From Acaryochloris marina S15 (GTDB lineage: Bacteria; Cyanobacteriota; Cyanobacteriia; Thermosynechococcales; Thermosynechococcaceae): a DNA stretch of 24,000 nucleotides. The stretch spans positions 4,779,846 to 4,803,845 of the forward strand of contig NZ_CP064923.1 in NCBI RefSeq assembly GCF_018336915.1. Direction: 5' to 3'. This document shows positions 14,145 through 24,000 of this stretch, one piece after another (positions within the stretch are counted from its first letter, which is position 1; every line of letters starts with the position of its first letter). The translations under genes were made by a program, and so were the position numbers. The notes under the pieces were generated by a model. The model searched no databases, was not told the origin of the DNA, and saw only the letters and a program-made list of their open reading frames with translations.

Positions 14145-16247
14145 ATGATGCTAGGCATCCAACCATTTAGAGCGGCTTTAACCCCACTCCAAAAAGCTTT
14201 TACCTGTATTTGTTGTTCATCCATGTACCTGACTCGTCTTGTTCACTCTAAGACCCTGCTGTTATTGCGAGAGGCATTTACATCCCTCTTGCCTGTCGTC
14301 TTAGTGATGAATATTATCGTTTTGCTGTCAGGTCTGTCTGGCCTGCTGGCATCTCAGAGCGTGGTAGCAGAGAGTTTCATCAACGGGAATGAAGTCAGCC
14401 GACTCTATTTCTTTTTAGTCCCGTTTTTTCTCAACATTTCCCTGAGCACCCTAATGGCCAAGGAGAAAGATCTGGATCAGGTGAGTACTGTTCTGATCTC
14501 AGTCGTTTGTTTTTTGCGGGTGTCGGGCTTTTTGTTTATCGATTCGACAGGCCAAATCCTCTCGTTTCAAGGTTCAGTGCTCACTAGTATTCCAGCCACA
14601 CTGGTAGCAGTCACACTACTCCATTACTTCAGTCGATTCTCTGCTCTGCAATTTTTTAGAGGTCGATCTGAGGTGAGTCCAGCCCTCCAAAGAACCCTGA
14701 ACCTCCTGATTCCAGGTCTCCTAACAGTGTTGTGTTTTGAGTTAATCGGCCAAGGATTTAGGCTATTTTTTAAGACTGGTCTGTTCAGTTTTTTATTCGA
14801 AATCCTACCTAAATTGCAAGCCACCCAAGAAGTCATTCTCTTTAAGCTAATTTCTCAACTTTCTTGGTTTTTCGGGATTCATGGCGAGTATAGTGCCGAT
14901 GGTCTATTTCGAATTTTGAATGCGATTCCATCCTCTGAAGCTGGCAGTATTCACTTCAAAGTTTTGCATGATGTTTTTATGAATATTGGAGGGTCTGGCT
15001 CCACTTTCGTCGTGCCATTGGCGATTCTTTTTCTACCCGGATCTACCCAATTCAAACCCATTGCGCAGCTGAGTCTGCCATTCGCACTCTTCAATGTGAA
15101 TGAGATTTTATTGTTCGGACTTCCGATTATTCTAAATCCACTCTTTCTGGCACCGTTTCTGTTAGCTCCGCTGGTCAATATGGCTATTGCGCTGACTGCA
15201 ATTCACTGGGGAGCATTCACCATTAGTGCGACTGCCATAAACTGGATGTCTCCGCCTTTATATAGTGCCTATGCGGCCTCTGGAGGATCGGGAGGGGCGG
15301 TACTGACCCAGTTCCTTTGCATCGTTATCGATATGGGTATCTACTATCCATTTCTGGTTCTGGCAAAGCAGCAGTCCAATACTCCACGTGCGCTCCGCAA
15401 GCTCTTGGATGGTGATGCCTACCAGTTTGTGAATAGAGAAATCAATCGCCAAGAAGAGCGGCGTTTTATGACTCAGAAAATGGATCAAGTCCAAGACATG
15501 GAAGAGGTCCAACGCTTACTACAGCAACTCAAAGGCGGGCAGTTTCTCCTCTACTTTCAGCCTAAGGTAGATGCCCAGTCGAAAGCACTCGTTGGCTTAG
15601 AAACGTTGCTGCGTTTCCAAGATGCAGGGGGTAACATTGTCCCCCCTACGTTTTTGCCGATCCTCTACCAACAGGGCTTATCTAAGGCTATAGATCAAAA
15701 AGTGCTGTCGCTTGTTTTTGACCAGATCAAACAGTGGCGAGGGAATGGTCAAGGATTTCCTCAGATTAGTATTAACCTGGATAAACATTTTTTATTAGAT
15801 CCACCCTCTGTAAAGACTTTGATTGCTAAAGCCAGACAAGAAGGGATTTGCTTTGAACTAGAAATTACTGAACATACCTACACTTCGGAAGTGAAATCTT
15901 TGGCATCAGTGGTTCGTGACCTTCGATCTGCTGGGCATCAAGTTTCAATTGATGATTTTGGGGCAGGCTATTCTTCCCTCACAACCTTAGTTTCTCTGGA
16001 AGCAGATTCGGTCAAATTAGACCGCAAGCTGGTCGTCGCCCCTGAAGGGGAAATCCAGCGGGGACGAGTGTTACTAGAGTCTAGTGTGAAGCTCTGTCAT
16101 GACTTAGGATTTTCTGTGGTGGCAGAAGGAATTGAAAACTTGTCTCAGTTACAACTAGTGCAACACTGTGGAGTAGATTTCGTGCAAGGGTATTACACAG
16201 GCAAACCCATGCCTGCTAATCAGGTCAGTCGCCTATTTCAGGCGTAA
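14145..16247 (+). CDS. Membrane protein: PTS EIIC (lactose/cellobiose family)-like domain fused to a C-terminal EAL c-di-GMP phosphodiesterase domain
   Basis: The N-terminal ~430 aa are polytopic, with WFFGIHG, GGSGST, NEILLFGLPIILNP and YYPFLVLAKQQ. These match the ChbC/CelB-type EIIC signatures (WFFGIHG, GGSGAT, NEPILFGLPIIMNP). The C-terminus carries the EAL motifs ETLLR, ISINL, ELEITE, IDDFGAGYSSL, VKLDR, AEGIEN and QGYY. Confidence 0.85.
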   Translation: MMLGIQPFRAALTPLQKAFTCICCSSMYLTRLVHSKTLLLLREAFTSLLPVVLVMNIIVLLSGLSGLLASQSVVAESFINGNEVSRLYFFLVPFFLNISLSTLMAKEKDLDQVSTVLISVVCFLRVSGFLFIDSTGQILSFQGSVLTSIPATLVAVTLLHYFSRFSALQFFRGRSEVSPALQRTLNLLIPGLLTVLCFELIGQGFRLFFKTGLFSFLFEILPKLQATQEVILFKLISQLSWFFGIHGEYSADGLFRILNAIPSSEAGSIHFKVLHDVFMNIGGSGSTFVVPLAILFLPGSTQFKPIAQLSLPFALFNVNEILLFGLPIILNPLFLAPFLLAPLVNMAIALTAIHWGAFTISATAINWMSPPLYSAYAASGGSGGAVLTQFLCIVIDMGIYYPFLVLAKQQSNTPRALRKLLDGDAYQFVNREINRQEERRFMTQKMDQVQDMEEVQRLLQQLKGGQFLLYFQPKVDAQSKALVGLETLLRFQDAGGNIVPPTFLPILYQQGLSKAIDQKVLSLVFDQIKQWRGNGQGFPQISINLDKHFLLDPPSVKTLIAKARQEGICFELEITEHTYTSEVKSLASVVRDLRSAGHQVSIDDFGAGYSSLTTLVSLEADSVKLDRKLVVAPEGEIQRGRVLLESSVKLCHDLGFSVVAEGIENLSQLQLVQHCGVDFVQGYYTGKPMPANQVSRLFQA

Positions 16248-17176: not shown

Positions 17177-18607
17177 CTAGCTGTTGGACTCATTAATAGC
17201 AGTCCATTCCGTATGAAACGTCCCTTCCTTGTCAATCCGCTGATAGGTATGGGCACCAAAGAAATCGCGCTGGGCCTGGGTTAGGTTTTGGGGCAGGCGA
17301 TCACGGCGATAGCTATCAAAGTAATCCAAAGAAGCACTAAAGGCCGGGACTGGAATACCGAGCTGAGCTGCAGTGGCCATCACTTCTCGCCAGGCTTGCT
17401 GACGGTCCAAAATGGTCTGCCGAAACTCAGGAGCAAGCAGTAGGTTGGCTAGGGCCGGATCATCGGCAAAGGCTGACTTGATCTTGTCCAAGAAGCTCGC
17501 CCGAATAATACAGCCCCCCTTCCAAATCCGAGAGATTTCACTCAAATTCAGATTGAAATTAAATTCCTTTGAAGCGGCACTCATCAAAGCCATGCCCTGA
17601 GCATAGGAGCAAATCTTGGAGCAATAAAGGGCATCTCGAACTTTGCCAATAAAGGCTTGCTTGTCGCCACTAAAGGTGGCCGTGGGTCCGGTCAAGATTT
17701 CAGCAGCCTTAACCCGCTCATCCTTAAAAGATGAGGTAATTCGAGCATTCACAGCTGCTGTAATCGTGGGGATGGGTACGCCTAATTCCAAGGCACTCAT
17801 CACGGTCCAACGGCCTGTGCCTTTCTGGCCTGCTTTATCCAAAATTAGCTCGACTAGAGGCTGCTGGGTACCTGGATCAACGTAGGTAAAAATTTCAGCC
17901 GTAATTTCCACCAAAAAGGAATTCAGTTCATCCGTGGTGTTCCACTCACTAAACACCTCATGCAGTTCTGTATGACTCAGTCCTAGAACATTTTTGAGCA
18001 GGTCATAGGCTTCGGCAATCAGCTGCATATCGCCATATTCAATGCCGTTATGGACCATTTTGACGTAGTGACCTGCACCCCCTGGGCCAATATAGGTGAC
18101 GCAAGGCCCGTCATCCACCTGAGCCGCAATTTTCGTCAGAATTGGAGACAGATCTTTATAGGCTGCTTCTGTGCCTCCGGGCATCAGACTGGGACCGTTC
18201 AGCGCCCCTTCTTCACCACCACTAACGCCCATGCCGATGAAGCGCAAGCCAACTGCTTCTAGCTCTTCTGTGCGGCGAACTGTATCTCCATACAAAGAGT
18301 TACCGCCATCAATCAGCACATCGCCTGGCTCTAGCATGGGCTTAAGCTGCTGAATCACCGCATCCACAGGTGCGCCAGCTTTCACCATGATCATGATGCG
18401 TCGAGGACGGGCAAGGGATGCTACGAGTTCTTCGGGCGTAAACGCGGCGACCACTTGTCGTCCTTGGGCCCGCTCCGCCATAAAGGCATCTGTTTTTGCT
18501 CGTGTCCGATTGTAGACAGCGATGGGAAAACCATTGCGCTCAACGTTGAGGGCTAGATTTTCCCCCATGACCGCGAGGCCAATCAGTCCAAATTGTTGCT
18601 GGGGCAT
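17177..18607 (-). CDS. gnd: 6-phosphogluconate dehydrogenase, decarboxylating (NADP+)
   Basis: 476 aa with an unmistakable Gnd sequence (GLIGLAVMGENLALNVERNGF..., IDGGNS, GMGVSGGEEGA, HNGIEYGDMQLI, AQRDFFGAHTY). Confidence 0.95.
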   Translation of the reverse strand: MPQQQFGLIGLAVMGENLALNVERNGFPIAVYNRTRAKTDAFMAERAQGRQVVAAFTPEELVASLARPRRIMIMVKAGAPVDAVIQQLKPMLEPGDVLIDGGNSLYGDTVRRTEELEAVGLRFIGMGVSGGEEGALNGPSLMPGGTEAAYKDLSPILTKIAAQVDDGPCVTYIGPGGAGHYVKMVHNGIEYGDMQLIAEAYDLLKNVLGLSHTELHEVFSEWNTTDELNSFLVEITAEIFTYVDPGTQQPLVELILDKAGQKGTGRWTVMSALELGVPIPTITAAVNARITSSFKDERVKAAEILTGPTATFSGDKQAFIGKVRDALYCSKICSYAQGMALMSAASKEFNFNLNLSEISRIWKGGCIIRASFLDKIKSAFADDPALANLLLAPEFRQTILDRQQAWREVMATAAQLGIPVPAFSASLDYFDSYRRDRLPQNLTQAQRDFFGAHTYQRIDKEGTFHTEWTAINESNS

Positions 18608-18952: not shown

Positions 18953-18961
18953 GGTCGTGCA

Positions 18962-19462
18962 TCAAACAATTGTGGGGTAGGTGAGTATGTCATCCCAATG
19001 CCAAGCTCGCGAGGCTAGATCAGCACGTTGTGCCGCCGTTGTTTTAAGCCGACTGTGTGTCCAAATCCAATTGAAATAGCTGACCACTAATCGAGCAGTG
19101 ACTTTGGTTTGCGCCCACACTTTGCCAAATTTGTTCTGGCGTCGATGCCATCGACCACTGTGCTGTCGAATAATGCCATTGGTGCGTTCGAGTCGTTGAG
19201 TTCTGTCCTTGCCAATGTAATGGTCAATCTCCCAAGGCAACACTCTTTCGTAACCACCCCAATCGTCGCTATTCCAGTCCTTGCAATCGGTCTTACCTTC
19301 AGTGCTAGTCACCAGTTCATTCAATAATGAATCGGTGTGCTTGCCCACACGACACGAGAGGATCACGCCGCTTGTGTTTGCCAAGGTAATCGCCATCCAA
19401 CAATCACCCATCTCTAGCTCATGGGGAAGACAGTGTTTTTGCTTTTTTTCACAAAGGACCAC
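18962..19462 (-). CDS. IS1-family transposase catalytic part (InsB-like frame; expressed as an InsAB fusion)
   Basis: The -1 frame relative to InsA has no convincing independent start (GTG in the track). The IS1-type DDE region includes WMAITL..., DDWGGYERV and IGKDRTQRLERTNGIIRQ. Confidence 0.85.
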   Translation of the reverse strand: MVLCEKKQKHCLPHELEMGDCWMAITLANTSGVILSCRVGKHTDSLLNELVTSTEGKTDCKDWNSDDWGGYERVLPWEIDHYIGKDRTQRLERTNGIIRQHSGRWHRRQNKFGKVWAQTKVTARLVVSYFNWIWTHSRLKTTAAQRADLASRAWHWDDILTYPTIV

Positions 19463-19791
19463 ATTTCATCTGCACTGACATCCTCCGTTTCAACGGCTTG
19501 CACTTGGCCATTATGGAGTTGCTGAGATCGTTGGCTAGCAGCTCTTACTAGAGAGACTACAGTGTTGTAAGCCAGGCCACTGGTCCGAGTGATACCTCGA
19601 AGACTACTCCCTTCTGCATGGGCTTGGAGAACTTGTCGGACCTGCTCTGGACTCACCTGACGACGATAGTAAAGGGTATCAAAGCGTTCAGTAAAGGTCT
19701 GCTGGCACTCAGGACAACGGTATCGTTGAAGCATGTTGGGCATCTTGCCATGCTTGTGTGCTTTGGAATGACCGCATAGTGGGCATTGCAT
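19414..19791 (-). CDS. IS1-family InsA-like protein (zinc finger + HTH), upstream frame of the transposase
   Basis: MQCPLCGHSKAHKHGK...YRCPECQQTF zinc-finger pair, an HTH region and ADEMWSFVKK at the frameshift window. Confidence 0.85.
   Translation of the reverse strand: MQCPLCGHSKAHKHGKMPNMLQRYRCPECQQTFTERFDTLYYRRQVSPEQVRQVLQAHAEGSSLRGITRTSGLAYNTVVSLVRAASQRSQQLHNGQVQAVETEDVSADEMWSFVKKSKNTVFPMS
19443..19449 (-). promoter_or_regulatory. Programmed -1 ribosomal frameshift site (A7 run)
   Basis: The minus strand reads TTT GTG AAA AAA AGC. A -1 slip joins ...EMWSFVKK to KQKHCLPHELEMGDCWMAI of the downstream ORF, as in IS1 InsAB' production. Confidence 0.7.
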
Positions 19792-19855
19792 GGGTAGGTT
19801 AGAAGCTGAGCTGAGCCTCTAGTATACTCAACCCACAATTACTTGAGGCACGACC

Positions 19856-19989: not shown

Positions 19990-20331
19990 ATGGCAAAACT
20001 ACCCGAGAGTCTCCTATCCACAATTTTTGAGTTGCTTCAGAAACTTGCTAAAGGGATTGAGGAGGCATCTGCAATTGAGTGGACTCTCTACGAGCAGCAT
20101 GGTGAAACAGCTGAAACAATGGAAGAGTTAAGAGAACTACAGAATGCTAGAGAGCGTCTGGTGTCCCCTTACTCACGTTTGAACACATTATTGCTTAGAA
20201 TTTTGGAGTCCCAACCTATAGCTGACCCTGCTATGCTGGAATTATTGATCCAAACAGTAAGTCAAGCTCAAGCCTCAACTGATGCGTCTTGGGCCAGTGT
20301 TCAAGAGGTCAAACGAGTTTGGAGGCTTTGA
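19990..20331 (+). CDS. Hypothetical small acidic helical protein (113 aa)
   Basis: ORF only, with no recognisable domain. Its stop overlaps the start of the next ORF. Confidence 0.55.
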   Translation: MAKLPESLLSTIFELLQKLAKGIEEASAIEWTLYEQHGETAETMEELRELQNARERLVSPYSRLNTLLLRILESQPIADPAMLELLIQTVSQAQASTDASWASVQEVKRVWRL

Positions 20332-20507
20332 TGGCAGATAACAAAACAGCGATTCCAAGCATTGAAGAAAGGCAACAGGCTCTTGAAATGCTAAGAGTGA
20401 GCAACCAACAGTTGGAACTCACCGCCATAGCATTAGACAAACTGATAACCACAGTAGAGACAGGTCTAAGCCGACAATATCACCAGCGCGTGGAGAAAAG
20501 CCTCTAG
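20331..20507 (+). CDS. Hypothetical small helical protein (58 aa), translationally coupled to the upstream ORF
   Basis: I prefer the ATG at 20331 (MADNKTAIPSIEERQQ...) because of the TGATG stop/start overlap and a GGAGG at 20321-20325. The track start at 20289 lies inside the upstream gene. Confidence 0.5.
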   Translation: MADNKTAIPSIEERQQALEMLRVSNQQLELTAIALDKLITTVETGLSRQYHQRVEKSL

Positions 20508-20622: not shown

Positions 20623-21162
20623 CTAATAGTATTTTTCAGGGAAACCATAAAGCAGTTCACTCGGATAGGCTGTATCAACTAGAAATTCAGAAACTTCGAC
20701 ATCAAATAATTGGCTGATCGAATACTTATCGAGGTATTCCTTGATTTGACTTGGATTTGAAAGATCGTAGTCATTGATGTATTGATCAACAATTTCACTG
20801 CGCAAAGAATGCAGCCATCTCTGAGGAAAATCACTGTCTAAGTCTGAATCAAAAAAAGGAATTAATAAGAAGATAGGATCCAGCTTTTCTGAAGATTTAC
20901 TCTGCAATATTGGCAGAGGTTGCAGAATACATATTCCTCTATTGATACGAGCATCCGACCAATGTTCGAATTTCGGTAGTGGCGGGAAAAATCTACTAAT
21001 CCCTGTGTCGCAGGCGGCTCGCCATTCAGCCATACCAGATGTATAGACTAACGTTTTTTGATTGACTACATTTGTTAATGCCAGCTCTCTAAGTTGAGCG
21101 AGAGAGATAGGGCCTACAACTTCTTTGCCAACCATATAATGCCAAGCATCATTGTCGCTCAT
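20623..21162 (-). CDS. GYF_2 (DUF4339)-domain protein with an uncharacterised C-terminal domain
   Basis: The N-terminus WHYMVGKEVVGPISLAQLRELALTNVVNQKTLVYTSGMAEWRAA fits the bacterial GYF_2 pattern. I do not recognise the rest. Confidence 0.7.
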   Translation of the reverse strand: MSDNDAWHYMVGKEVVGPISLAQLRELALTNVVNQKTLVYTSGMAEWRAACDTGISRFFPPLPKFEHWSDARINRGICILQPLPILQSKSSEKLDPIFLLIPFFDSDLDSDFPQRWLHSLRSEIVDQYINDYDLSNPSQIKEYLDKYSISQLFDVEVSEFLVDTAYPSELLYGFPEKYY

Positions 21163-21354: not shown

Positions 21355-21870
21355 TTAGAACGTCACATACAGCCCACTCTGTCGCGCAAGGCAACTTCTG
21401 AGGAATGAAAGGTACTCTATCGTCAAGGAATTATCCGACTTAGATAGAAGTTCAAAGGACTGGCTTACCTCATCTGGTGATTGAAAATACGATCCCATTT
21501 TCCCTGGATCAAACGGATTGAAAGAAGGTCCAACGGTTTGACCCAACAGAGCGGCTTGGGATGAGTGAGTTAAACAATCGCCACAATCAAGCCATGCAGA
21601 ACCGATACCAAAATCTTTGATTGGATCATAGAAGCGGGTAATCGCAAAATCTCCAAGTGTGTGAACATCATGAACATTTTCTACTTGTGTTCGCCAATCT
21701 AAATTGAGAGGTTCCCCTTCATATGGATCAACAAGGAATCGCACATTTTCTTCTATGTATGAGTGCAGTGGAACTACATCATTTGATGCAAGAGCATTAT
21801 GTAAAATCGTGAGAAAGTCAGTCTTAAAAAACTGCCAATCAAATTCGAAAGCTTTATGCTCCATCGACAT
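21355..21870 (-). CDS. Hypothetical protein (171 aa), no recognisable domain
   Basis: ORF only, A+T-rich. It starts 17 nt after the attC-like site P1. Confidence 0.6.
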   Translation of the reverse strand: MSMEHKAFEFDWQFFKTDFLTILHNALASNDVVPLHSYIEENVRFLVDPYEGEPLNLDWRTQVENVHDVHTLGDFAITRFYDPIKDFGIGSAWLDCGDCLTHSSQAALLGQTVGPSFNPFDPGKMGSYFQSPDEVSQSFELLSKSDNSLTIEYLSFLRSCLARQSGLYVTF

Positions 21871-21886
21871 AAATCAAAGTTGGATC

Positions 21887-21976
21887 GGTTAACGCCCAAA
21901 ATCACCGGGCCGCTGCTAGCGACGCTCCATTTAAATCTGACTGAATCGGCGGCTCCGGTGCATGTATTTGTTAGGC
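21887..21976 (-). other. attC-like recombination site (P1), 90 bp
   Basis: The minus strand reads GCCTAAC...GTTAACC. The TAA stop of the TIR ORF lies within the first box. CACCGGGCCGC (21903-21913) pairs with GCGGC-T-CCGGTG (21949-21960), leaving one extrahelical base. TAAC/GTTA close the hairpin. It is homologous to P2 over most of its length. Confidence 0.65.
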
Positions 21977-22822
21977 ATTTTTTACGCCGAGTGCAAAATC
22001 GAGTGCGCGCTGAAAACGGGATAAAGGGATTCCGTGCTCCGTTCGTTCTAAGTCAGACGAGTGATAGTTCAGCCAATGATATTTCTTCAACGCCTCTGGT
22101 GGTTCACAGTCTGTGTCCAACAAAACGGGAATAATGTAGATTTCGCCCTCTGGCACCTCCTCTGCGACCTCAACGCTCTTGCGCAGTTCTTTTTGAAAGT
22201 AGCCGCGCTTAGCTATTGCATTGGAAGAGAGCAGCGGCATAAACACCTGAGATCGACGAATAGCCCTTCGGATTTCAAGCCCCCAATCCTGGCCGGGAAT
22301 TAATGACTCTTCGTCGAACCAGAGTCGGTATCCCATTATCTTGAGTTTTTCGTAAATCGTACGGGCAATTTCCACGTCGACGCGCGAATAAGATAGGAAA
22401 ATCTGGTCGGAGCTGCGCTGGTGCCGTTCTCCCAATTCATCCACGTGTCTAAGAATCTCGTTGATCGCAGCATCTTCATCGCCATCAAAGTAAACAAGTC
22501 GTTCTCCAGCAAGATATTTCGGCGCACGGCTAACAAGCTTTTGTGTGGTGAGCAAGACGGTCCGATGGTCGTTGCCGTGACCAGTGAAAAAGGCAATCTC
22601 ACTTGCCACATTTGCGTACCATGTGGTGTGCAAACCAACAGCAACCAATGTGTCGGCATTCCGAATTGCTTTCGCGACGTCATCATCAACGAACGAAAAC
22701 TCGGAAAAATCGGCCCGGATTTGTTCACCAGCGATCGCTTGGTGTCCTGATTTTGTGATGCGCTGCGCAATCTTGAGAGCGAATTCCTTGTCGTAGTTGG
22801 TATGAGCGACGAAAACAATCAT
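21971..22822 (-). CDS. Tandem TIR-like / TIR-domain protein
   Basis: The C-terminal half is a clear TIR_2-type domain (IFLSYSRVDVEIARTIYEKLKIMGYRLWFDEESLIPGQDW...VFMPLLSSNAIAKRGYFQKELR...IIPVLLD), including the conserved Glu position. The N-terminal half (MIVFVAHTNYDKEFALKIAQRI...ADTLVAVG...WYANVASEIAF) looks like a second, divergent TIR/flavodoxin-like fold. Confidence 0.85.
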   Translation of the reverse strand: MIVFVAHTNYDKEFALKIAQRITKSGHQAIAGEQIRADFSEFSFVDDDVAKAIRNADTLVAVGLHTTWYANVASEIAFFTGHGNDHRTVLLTTQKLVSRAPKYLAGERLVYFDGDEDAAINEILRHVDELGERHQRSSDQIFLSYSRVDVEIARTIYEKLKIMGYRLWFDEESLIPGQDWGLEIRRAIRRSQVFMPLLSSNAIAKRGYFQKELRKSVEVAEEVPEGEIYIIPVLLDTDCEPPEALKKYHWLNYHSSDLERTEHGIPLSRFQRALDFALGVKNA

Positions 22823-22848: not shown

Positions 22849-22949
22849 ACCTAACGTCTGGCATAATCGGGCCGCCGCGATTGATGCTCTATTTGAAAAC
22901 GTGTTGAAAACGTGCTGACGGGGGCTCCGCGTTCATGCCTTTGTTATGC
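22849..22949 (-). other. attC-like recombination site (P2), 101 bp
   Basis: The minus strand reads GCATAAC...GTTAGGT. The TAA stop of the upstream ORF lies within the first box. GGCAT/ATGCC and GC-rich pairings are present. There is an internal 11-nt tandem duplication TTGAAAACGTG x2 (22893-22914). It is homologous to P1. Confidence 0.65.
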
Positions 22950-23969
22950 GATATTGGAAAACATCTTGGGAGGCTCCTCATCGCTGTGGTCAATATTGAA
23001 CTTGGCGACTCCGTTATCATATGCAGTCCGGTAGTCGCTGCTGTTACCAATTGCGGTGTAGAATCCACTGGTAAACACTGTGGCCCCTGCATCGGAGATG
23101 ATTCCGGTCGCACCGATGGTGAATGGGACATCAGCGGACACACGCTCGGCCAATCCATCAGTTTCGCAGCACGAGAACAGGACGCATTCGAGCTTCTTTG
23201 CGAGCGGGCGAAGGAGCGCATGGAATAAATCGTAGCTCACAGCTTTAGTGGTACCATCCGATGATTCAAACAGAAATCCGCCTGTCTCCGTGCCAGAGCA
23301 CGACAAATGAAGGATTTCGGGATGGTGCAAAAGCAGTAATCGATCCAAGTCGTGGGCTTGCACGGCCCACTCTTGTTCAAGAACTATTTCACCAGATCGA
23401 CGTGCAGATTCGAGTGCCCGCGTAATTCGCCGCACCTCACAATCCATTCGAAGCCGATTCTCGTCAATCGGATTGGCACAGAGCACCAGTACCTTTCGTG
23501 CGGCTTTCCGCTGACCCCAATTTTGTAATTCTTGCCGAATCGTGAAGCATGCGGGACCGACCGCGGTCAATAAGTTTCCTTGGTCCGCACTGCGGTAAGC
23601 GGCAAAGGTCACACCATGGAGGTCACTGATAACGTCAGGCTTGGCACTTGCGTCGAAAACAGCAAATGTCCGTGAACGCCCGACGTGACCATAGAAAAGT
23701 CCAAGTTCAAAAAGAACGTTTCCGCGCGTAGTTCCGGTCTCCGCTCCGCGGCTAACAAGAGTATCGTCGCTGCGAAGAACGAAAATGCCGTAGTCGAATT
23801 GCTTGACGGTGTCCACCAACGTCTCAAGATAGCCATGCGATAGACTGAATACACCTTCGTTCCAAAGGACGACCTCGGCGGCGTCAGCGAGTTGGTGTTG
23901 GATCGCTCTGGCAACATCAAGCCCTTCAGACGACGACCCAATGAAGACTCGTGGTTTTTGTATTGTCAT
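22944..23969 (-). CDS. TIR-like (CAP12/Pycsar-effector-type, PF10137-like) N-terminal domain fused to a CHAT/caspase-like C-terminal domain
   Basis: The N-terminus RVFIGSSSEGLDVARAIQHQL...WNEGVF...LETL...FDYGIFVLRSDD...RGNVLFELGLFYGHVGRSRTF fits the TIR-like nucleotide-binding family. The C-terminus KVLVLCANPIDENRLRMDCEVRRI...ILHLSCSG...ECVLFSCCETDG...IGATGIISDAGATVFTSGFY matches the small CHAT-like module common in cyanobacteria (consensus ...HFSGHG...LNAC...). Confidence 0.8.
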   Translation of the reverse strand: MTIQKPRVFIGSSSEGLDVARAIQHQLADAAEVVLWNEGVFSLSHGYLETLVDTVKQFDYGIFVLRSDDTLVSRGAETGTTRGNVLFELGLFYGHVGRSRTFAVFDASAKPDVISDLHGVTFAAYRSADQGNLLTAVGPACFTIRQELQNWGQRKAARKVLVLCANPIDENRLRMDCEVRRITRALESARRSGEIVLEQEWAVQAHDLDRLLLLHHPEILHLSCSGTETGGFLFESSDGTTKAVSYDLFHALLRPLAKKLECVLFSCCETDGLAERVSADVPFTIGATGIISDAGATVFTSGFYTAIGNSSDYRTAYDNGVAKFNIDHSDEEPPKMFSNIA

Positions 23970-23979
23970 TTGTTCGATC

Positions 23980-24000
23980 GCATAACTATAATTAGCAGGC
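23980..24000 (-). other. attC-like site (P0), only the R' end is inside the window
   Basis: The minus strand shows GTTATGC at 23986-23980, 10 nt upstream of the ATG at 23969. It is the exact complement of the GCATAAC box (22949-22943) at the other end of the same unit. Confidence 0.4.

Follow-up and report, generated by a model that had tools for sequence, protein, structure and literature searches.

A 283-residue tandem TIR protein on an integron gene cassette of Acaryochloris marina S15

The window analysed here is a 24,000 nucleotide (nt) stretch of contig NZ_CP064923.1 from the cyanobacterium Acaryochloris marina S15 (contig positions 4,779,846–4,803,845; all coordinates below are those of the window). 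It carries an integron gene cassette with a single open reading frame (ORF), which encodes a protein of 283 amino acids (aa) with two TIR domains in tandem. Of these, the C-terminal one is a canonical TIR_2 domain. Pfam matches, bridging proteins and the predicted fold identify the N-terminal one as a diverged TIR in which the position of the catalytic Glu is preserved. The protein probably cleaves NAD+ on its own, as a defence protein or toxin, which would make it a member of a known enzyme class in an uncommon layout. What is new is the rare two-TIR layout on a verified integron cassette; the enzyme class itself is well studied. The gene and its two domains are located as follows.

21971–22822, minus strand: ORF of the tandem TIR protein, 283 aa, ATG start and TAA stop; diverged TIR, linker helix, TIR_2 domain and short C-terminal tail.
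22427–22822, minus strand: N-terminal diverged TIR domain, residues 1–132, with invariant F4, H7, G32, S43, E75 and P101.
22598–22600, minus strand: codon of E75, which corresponds in the N-domain to the catalytic Glu of TIRs; assigned from bridging alignments and from invariance in 18 family sequences.
22055–22405, minus strand: C-terminal canonical TIR_2 domain, residues 140–256, with IFLSYSR (beta-A), the PGQDW BB-loop and the RGYFQKE motif.
22187–22189, minus strand: codon of E212 (in FQKELR), the catalytic-Glu position of the C-terminal TIR, assigned from PDB alignments and family invariance.

The two domains of the tandem TIR protein

The reading frame is intact across 21971–22822. Relatives share the same initial Met, which indicates that the start codon has been called correctly. 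The sequence motifs quoted in a preliminary description of this DNA were all located in the translation: MIVFVAH at residues 1–7, DTLVAVG at 57–63, W68 followed by ASEIAF at 73–78, and FQKELR at 209–214. An AlphaFold2 model of the full-length protein has a pLDDT of 84.8 and a pTM of 0.74. The helix at residues 116–136, which lies between the two TIR domains, is a confident part of this model, and the N-terminal TIR is predicted to be joined rigidly to the C-terminal TIR through it.

The C-terminal half had been described as a canonical bacterial TIR domain, and profile searches bear this out. Pfam TIR_2 matches residues 141–256 with an E value of 4.5e-31 and 108.3 bits (cut-off 28), Pfam TIR also matches this half (E 3e-7), and the C-domain scanned alone scores 87 bits against TIR_2. 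The solved structures nearest in sequence are the flax L6 TIR, several SPARTA TIR-APAZ proteins, Cat1 and AbTir. The putative catalytic Glu of FQKELR is E212, at the helix alpha-C position; it aligns with the Glu of the L6 TIR (..WCLMEL..) and of the SPARTA TIRs (..KEL..). A Foldseek search with the full-length model gives SPARTA, SARM1 and other TIRs as the best matches. In PADLOC the best match of the C-domain is the short-Argonaute-associated TIR (Aga_TIR, E 1.9e-13), and the best-scoring characterised TIR clade is that of SPARTA (PDB 8qlo, 8ifk, 8fex and others; E of about 2e-4 in the PDB). These sequence matches place the C-domain in the TIR_2 clade that includes the SPARTA TIR, and it is a putative NAD+ glycohydrolase with E212 as the catalytic residue. 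TIR domains of this type show ..PGQDW.., ..KRGYFQKE.. and ..PEG.IFIIPVLL.. motifs. Elsewhere they are fused to LRR, HTH, DUF3298, transmembrane and deoxyribosyltransferase-like modules, and fusion to so many different modules is indicative of a portable effector module.

The N-terminal half had been suggested to have the same beta-alpha layout and to be TIR-like or deoxyribosyltransferase-like. Scanned alone, it matches positions 1–120 of the 122 positions in the TIR_2 profile, with E values of 1.5e-5 to 1.7e-5. Neither this match nor that of the C-half can be put down to chance. TIR_2 is matched by the N-half in six of eight family members (best E 1.5e-6). The CAP12/Pycsar-TIR model (PF10137) is matched weakly in five of the eight and ThsB_TIR in one; the N-domain of one relative, P0036, clears the curated cut-off of PF10137 (26.0 versus 24.7). 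A profile of the N-half recovered 44 proteins from 1.84 billion cluster representatives, and those outside its own family are exclusively bona fide TIR_2 proteins. Further evidence comes from bridging proteins, which are single-domain or otherwise fused and in which the N and C profiles match the same residues, in register. All ten bridging proteins scanned are Pfam TIR_2 proteins above the cut-off (E 1e-15 to 1e-33). A single Glu aligns to both E75 of the N profile and E212 of the C profile in 10 of 14 bridging proteins, and in these alignments F4 corresponds to F142 and H7 to Y145.

A model of the N-half alone has a pLDDT of 91.1 and displays a flavodoxin-like beta-alpha sandwich with five strands (residues 2–7, 28–31, 58–63, 88–92 and 108–111). 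A fold search with this model finds TIRs (RRS1 with a TM score of 0.66, TIR-STING and BtpA). The model resembles the TIR and deoxyribosyltransferase folds about equally, and the double label in the preliminary description was a fair one. The predicted structure confirms the fold class and does not assign a family. Pfam matches, bridging TIR_2 proteins and predicted fold agree that the N-half is not an unrelated fold. A PDB sequence search with the N-half profile gave no match.

The cassette and its attC sites

The boundaries of the cassette are two attC sites.

21887–21976, minus strand: attC site closing the tandem TIR cassette, with R'' GCCTAAC, which contains the TAA stop of the gene, and R' GTTAACC.
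22849–22949, minus strand: attC site of the upstream cassette, forming the 5' boundary of the tandem TIR cassette, with R'' GCATAAC and R' GTTAGGT.

The cassette extends from 22854 down to 21893 on the minus strand. It is 962 nt and holds a single gene, in agreement with the earlier remark that it has no partner sensor gene. The two attC elements align to each other over their whole length, and their R'' boxes hold the stop codons of the upstream genes (GCC-TAA-C and GCA-TAA-C). A search pattern of 20 bases from the 5' arm of the window elements detected 63 metagenome contigs. An nhmmer profile was built from 57 metagenome elements only, with the window copies not included. This profile matches the window at 21890–21976 (E 5.2e-16, full model) and 22850–22948 (E 7.1e-13), and nowhere else. 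There are 153 copies of the class in the 63 contigs (L012–L074), never on both strands of one contig. They are spaced at a median of 650 nt (range 291–2004), with up to 9 copies in 7.7 kb.

The consensus secondary structure has R'' paired with R' and L'' with L'. It consists of 21 base pairs, six of which show compensatory changes, and two conserved single-base bulges. A search of the window with the strict attC pattern RYYYAAC...GTTRRRY gave one chance palindrome only, and single-sequence folding of the two elements is no better than that of shuffled sequences (z of -0.9 and -0.45). The attC assignment therefore rests on the family profile, the array organization and the covariation. The gene is flanked by two homologous sites of an array-forming class, and the cassette proposed from the sequence alone stands: the window elements are attC sites and the tandem TIR gene is an integron gene cassette.

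The attC class is highly conserved and widespread over many samples, with the consensus ..YTAACAAANNCATGCACCGGAGCC ... GGCCCGGTGATGCC NNNC GTTAGRC. A subclass with GAACGCGGAGCC...CCGGTTATGCC also has the central loop sequence of the second site in the window. An Rfam scan of the window gave no match.

The cassette array runs towards the window end (24000), and the one further contig that contains this locus stops at 24067, 67 nt beyond the window, and on its other side at the boundary of the insertion sequence described below. The metagenome arrays display no tyrosine-recombinase box motifs, and an ORF listing of one of them (L070) is also without an integrase. A cluster of attC sites without an integrase (CALIN) is possible. 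A near-consensus sigma-70-type promoter is found at 23963–23992 on the plus strand (TTGTCA, 18 nt, TATAAT; 11/12). It points out of the window and diverges from the cassette genes. No attC of the window class is present in the 98 nt upstream of the neighbouring cassette gene, which encodes the TIR-CHAT-like protein described below. The outward promoter and the absence of an attC at this position would fit an attI/intI junction just past the window.

Family conservation and proposed function

Full-length relatives of the tandem TIR protein are few. There are 7 among 5.8 billion clustered proteins, and the complete tandem proteins total about 13 when the search of 1.84 billion representatives and a metagenome-assembled genome of Schlesneria (Planctomycetota) are added. 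Relatives occur in free-living planctomycete and environmental contigs. A phage collection has no match to the tandem protein, a viral structure library has no tandem counterpart, and a plasmid search gave C-domain matches only. The literature searched has no paper that describes the bacterial tandem family, nor one on canonical two-TIR_2 proteins of about 290 aa. The neighbourhoods of homologues (L002, L003, L004, L011 and the P0005 contig) show no conserved partner gene. The P0005 contig (JGI 3300056388, 8152 nt) represents another multi-TIR gene cluster. Here the tandem TIR homologue is within 4 kb of a transposase and of two proteins with TIR_2 and pentapeptide repeats (354 and 373 aa).

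E75 is invariant in 18 of 18 family sequences. E212 is invariant in every intact family member that covers the position; one truncated or frameshifted fragment has K. Other positions that are invariant or nearly so are F4, H7, G32, S43 and P101 in the N-domain, and FLSY, W168, D170, G177, W180, R206 and G207 in the C-domain. Identities of six relatives to the window protein are 86, 51, 48, 33, 24 and 30% in the N-half versus 85, 57, 52, 53, 51 and 48% in the C-half. The N-half thus diverges faster, with identities down to 24–33% versus 48–53% in the C-half, as is typical where a conserved effector carries a sensor or regulator. Both Glu residues are kept despite the low identity of the N-half, which speaks for a role in catalysis or ligand binding rather than for a bare scaffold. 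The strict conservation of E75, H7 and S43 also marks the N-domain as more than a scaffold, and it may bind NAD+ or a nucleotide, or may be catalytic itself.

The reading favoured here, with moderate confidence and from the sequence comparisons, is that of a single-gene NAD+ glycohydrolase for abortive infection, with the C-terminal TIR as effector and the N-terminal TIR as regulator or assembly partner. In TIR NADases such as SARM1, AbTir and SPARTA the active site is at the TIR-TIR BE interface and activity is tied to induced self-association. Because the active site of known TIR NADases forms only at a TIR-TIR interface, the N-terminal TIR is proposed as a built-in partner. The intramolecular pair could mimic the TIR-TIR assembly interface, as the preliminary description had suggested. 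The C-terminal TIR would cleave NAD+ with E212. The N-terminal TIR would either cap the C-terminal TIR in an inactive state or form a single asymmetric TIR pair with it in advance. Higher-order assembly would then be triggered by crowding or by a cue from the phage, with NAD+ depletion and abortive infection as the outcome, and the protein would work without a separate gene for a sensor or effector.

Several observations weigh against this reading. With respect to the N-half, its TIR_2 score of 25.7–25.9 bits is below the curated Pfam cut-off of 28, and a direct comparison of the N-half and C-half profiles gives a weak match, with an E value of 0.033 over 50 columns. The N-domain is without the Arg that the C-domain has in its SYSR beta-A motif. 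In the fold search, deoxyribosyltransferases, DNPH1, MilB, receiver domains and the AdiA wing domain score about like the TIRs. With respect to the defence function, PADLOC and NCBIfam have no defence-system model that spans the full tandem architecture, and there are no attC-like flanks or evident defence islands around the homologues in the contigs examined. With respect to the cassette, no integrase is seen in the window, whose edge the array runs off, and no promoter-like site precedes the tandem TIR gene on its own strand.

The missing promoter-like site bears on a different explanation, in which the TIR protein has no enzymatic activity or is directed at a host, interfering with eukaryotic TIR signalling as a Tcp-like scaffold or effector, or in which the gene is silent cargo of the array. 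Cassette-encoded TIR proteins from plant-associated metagenomes have been interpreted as host immune modulators (PMC11089894), which is a further point in its favour. Several findings speak against it. Both catalytic Glu residues are strictly conserved. A secretion signal and a Tcp-type coiled-coil N-domain are absent, as the N-terminus is itself a TIR. The ORF is intact, with clear constraint seen across relatives at 39–85% identity, and relatives occur in free-living planctomycete and environmental contigs. This explanation is considered very unlikely.

A second explanation concerns the way in which the two domains would work together. A composite pocket formed by both TIR-fold domains could process a nucleotide other than NAD+, by hydrolysis of a signal of the cyclic ADP-ribose (cADPR) type or by base cleavage or exchange, and the protein could be a signal eraser, a regulator or a counter-defence enzyme. 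A precedent is Drosophila Raw, in which both TIR domains are required; a pocket between the domains with essential Glu residues has been proposed, and the protein hydrolyses cADPR and not NAD+ (PMC13455253). E75 and E212 are both invariant in the tandem family, the pTM of 0.74 suggests a fixed inter-domain arrangement in the model, and MilB, DNPH1/Rcl and 2'-deoxyribosyltransferases score as high as TIRs against the N-domain model (TM scores of 0.62–0.70). Related two-domain proteins (P0048, P0051 and P0011) have a genuine Nuc_deoxyrib_tr domain beside TIR_2. However, apart from the TIR fold nothing in the sequence relates the protein to Raw, the C-domain is close to NADase-type TIRs, and sequence profiles group the N-domain with TIR_2 and not with Nuc_deoxyrib_tr. 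The composite pocket is improbable on balance. A similarly low probability is given to a minimal asymmetric TIR pair, with one intrachain active site made from E75 and E212 and with no filament needed, which would yield a new NAD-derived product or carry out cADPR-type hydrolysis. If a composite site is present, the cassette would encode a portable protein that makes or erases a signal, instead of one that simply depletes NAD+.

In its mode of action the tandem TIR protein would be closest to abortive-infection proteins encoded by a single TIR gene, such as SpbK, with a second TIR in place of the sensor module. SpbK from Bacillus subtilis is a single TIR protein that acts as a clustering-induced NADase in defence, with its active site at the BE interface, and its activity is proposed to arise as TIR domains meet at this interface (PMC12847820). 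SpbK resembles the window protein in size (266 aa), in being one polypeptide with no partner effector, and in having a C-terminal TIR with a catalytic Glu (PMC12847820). It differs in its N-terminal module, a 4-helix bundle that binds the phage portal, whereas in the window protein this place is taken by a second TIR with the catalytic Glu preserved. Outside the TIR domain no sequence relationship between the two proteins is detectable. SPARTA, the best-scoring clade for the C-domain, has an NADase that is activated by oligomerisation. The tandem protein has no APAZ domain or Argonaute gene and is not a SPARTA member, and the guide/target activation logic of SPARTA is inapplicable. The N-domain has a pattern of NV..E..(F/Y)F followed by ...P.YL... 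that resembles the PF10137 clade of Cap12/PycTIR, but the PF10137 score of the window protein is 12 bits, far under the cut-off.

Further assignments to known defence systems were considered and rejected. The protein does not represent a CBASS or Pycsar TIR effector, as it has only two TIRs and no cyclic-nucleotide sensor (STING or cNMP-binding), and the window has no CD-NTase or pyrimidine cyclase. The PADLOC model PDC-S66 (282 positions) matches only residues 132–232 (model positions 142–239, E 7.6e-8) and leaves the N-half unaligned.

Other proteins with two TIR domains are found in bacteria. Tandems of TIR_2-TIR_2 with about 285–295 aa (P0043, P0046, P0055 and P0059–P0062) and a TIR+TIR protein (P0032) have the same size and two-TIR layout as the window protein. 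However, these proteins consist of two canonical TIR_2 domains (combined E down to 5e-47), and the matches to the window-family profiles are weak. Their sequences suggest a separate lineage or much less diverged duplicates. On these profile matches, tandem TIRs are an architecture that recurs in bacteria. An extreme TIR-repeat architecture is seen in P0041, a protein of 1773 aa with at least 7 consecutive TIR domains by the C-domain profile. In eukaryotes, a single chain with two TIR-fold domains is known from Drosophila (Raw) and Dictyostelium (TirE; PMC13455253, PMC13142454). Both proteins differ from the window protein in being large multi-domain proteins with no specific sequence similarity to it, and Raw is a cADPR hydrolase, not an NADase.

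The layout is of interest in that TIR enzymes are normally active only after separate TIR domains assemble. A natural, hard-wired two-TIR chain would provide a compact test case for how a TIR-TIR interface switches catalysis on or off, and for one TIR acting as a regulator, cap or co-catalyst of another. If the protein is only another NAD+-depleting abortive-infection protein, it would be an incremental addition to a well-known class.

With respect to its carrier, two papers document integron cassettes as carriers of compact phage-defence genes (10.1101/2024.07.02.601719; 10.64898/2026.03.17.712381). The tandem TIR cassette is similar to the BRiCs/SCI defence cassettes in being a compact, promoterless gene bounded by attC, with a conflict function that is predicted here, and it differs in that neither the attC class nor the host belongs to the Vibrio or class 1 systems studied in those papers. 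TIR is not mentioned in the first of them (10.1101/2024.07.02.601719), and the term occurs once in the second. Together with the neighbouring TIR cassette described below, the tandem TIR gene would add TIR-based conflict genes to the repertoire shuffled by integrons, as a unit of about 1 kb.

The neighbouring cassette and the remainder of the window

The cassette upstream of the tandem TIR cassette carries the following gene.

22944–23969, minus strand: neighbouring cassette gene, 341 aa, Cap12/Pycsar-type TIR (residues 5–130) and CHAT-like domain; given as context and not as a partner.

The TIR of this protein matches Pfam PF10137 (E 2.3e-26), NCBIfam Cap12 (E 5e-35) and the PADLOC models for CBASS/Pycsar TIR effectors (E 1e-33 to 1e-43). 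The C-terminal half has no match in Pfam; it matches the CHAT domain of PDB 8tl0_A with an E value of 6.9e-7. In this CHAT-like domain the catalytic His is replaced by Ser (ILHFIGHG to ILHLSCSG), and the Cys position is retained (VLFSCCET). The TIR-CHAT-like architecture is unusual and possibly uncharacterised. A visual resemblance between the N-half of the tandem protein and the TIR of the neighbour (NV..E...F.GH....RT) was considered and set aside: it has no pairwise statistical support, and a BLASTP comparison of the two gave no match.

Profile matches, together with the attC between the genes, establish that two consecutive cassettes both encode TIR-superfamily proteins, as had been noted. 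The preliminary description had taken this as a sign of selection for NAD+-targeting conflict functions in the array. The adjacency of two TIR cassettes is unusual and anecdotal, and two cassettes are too few to show selection. In metagenome arrays of this attC class, which cover 190 kb and hold 961 ORFs, no ORF matches either TIR profile.

The neighbouring gene is relevant to a third explanation of the tandem TIR protein, i.e., that it is a signal-generating TIR like ThsB. A messenger of the cADPR type, or another NAD-derived messenger, would be made on infection and would activate an effector encoded elsewhere, either the TIR-CHAT-like neighbour or a distant gene. The tandem protein is short and without a sensor, as are Thoeris TIR proteins, and it matches the ThsB models weakly (PADLOC E 1e-4 to 1e-2) and type III Thoeris ThcB4 with an E value of 7e-4. 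Single-domain relatives of the N-domain include proteins that also match ThsB_TIR. In type IV Thoeris a TIR is paired with a caspase-family protein (10.1101/2024.10.24.620036), and the neighbour has a CHAT (caspase-family) domain. However, the ThsB and ThcB4 scores are far under the family cut-offs. An attC separates the two genes, so that the cassettes move independently. The neighbour has Ser for the catalytic His, and its N-terminus is an effector-type Cap12 TIR and not a known signal receptor. A Thoeris assignment was also rejected, as no SLOG/SIR2, Macro or caspase effector with a sensor is present in the window or in the homologue contexts examined. A signal-generating role is regarded as unlikely, and the single-gene NAD+ glycohydrolase remains the favoured reading.

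On the other side of the tandem TIR cassette, a 171 aa ORF (21355–21870, minus strand) begins 23 nt past the last attC, much as a cassette gene would. Pfam, NCBIfam, PADLOC and PHROGs give no match to it. It is followed by a gene for a 179 aa GYF_2-domain protein (20623–21162, minus strand). The profile search found no further attC of the window class downstream of these two ORFs, which may represent a degenerate last cassette or the flank of the array.

Two overlapping small ORFs of 113 and 72 aa (19990–20331 and 20289–20507, both plus strand) are situated between the cassette region and an insertion sequence (IS). They have no family match, and their layout resembles that of a two-gene toxin-antitoxin-type module. 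The IS is an IS1-family element at 18953–19855 with terminal inverted repeats of 24 nt that are 88% complementary. It has an InsA-like zinc-ribbon ORF (19414–19791) that overlaps a DDE_Tnp_IS1 ORF (18962–19462). The element divides the cassette region from the ordinary chromosome, which is represented by gnd at 17177–18607. A break is seen here in an independent Logan contig, L001: it lies at 19828, immediately outside the terminal repeat of the IS at 19832–19855.

Further from the cassettes, a 700 aa protein (14145–16247, plus strand) has an uncommon fusion of a PTS_EIIC-type membrane domain with a C-terminal EAL domain (c-di-GMP phosphodiesterase). A second mobile element gene is found at 476–2158 on the plus strand and encodes a 560 aa transposase with DUF4277 and DDE_Tnp_1.

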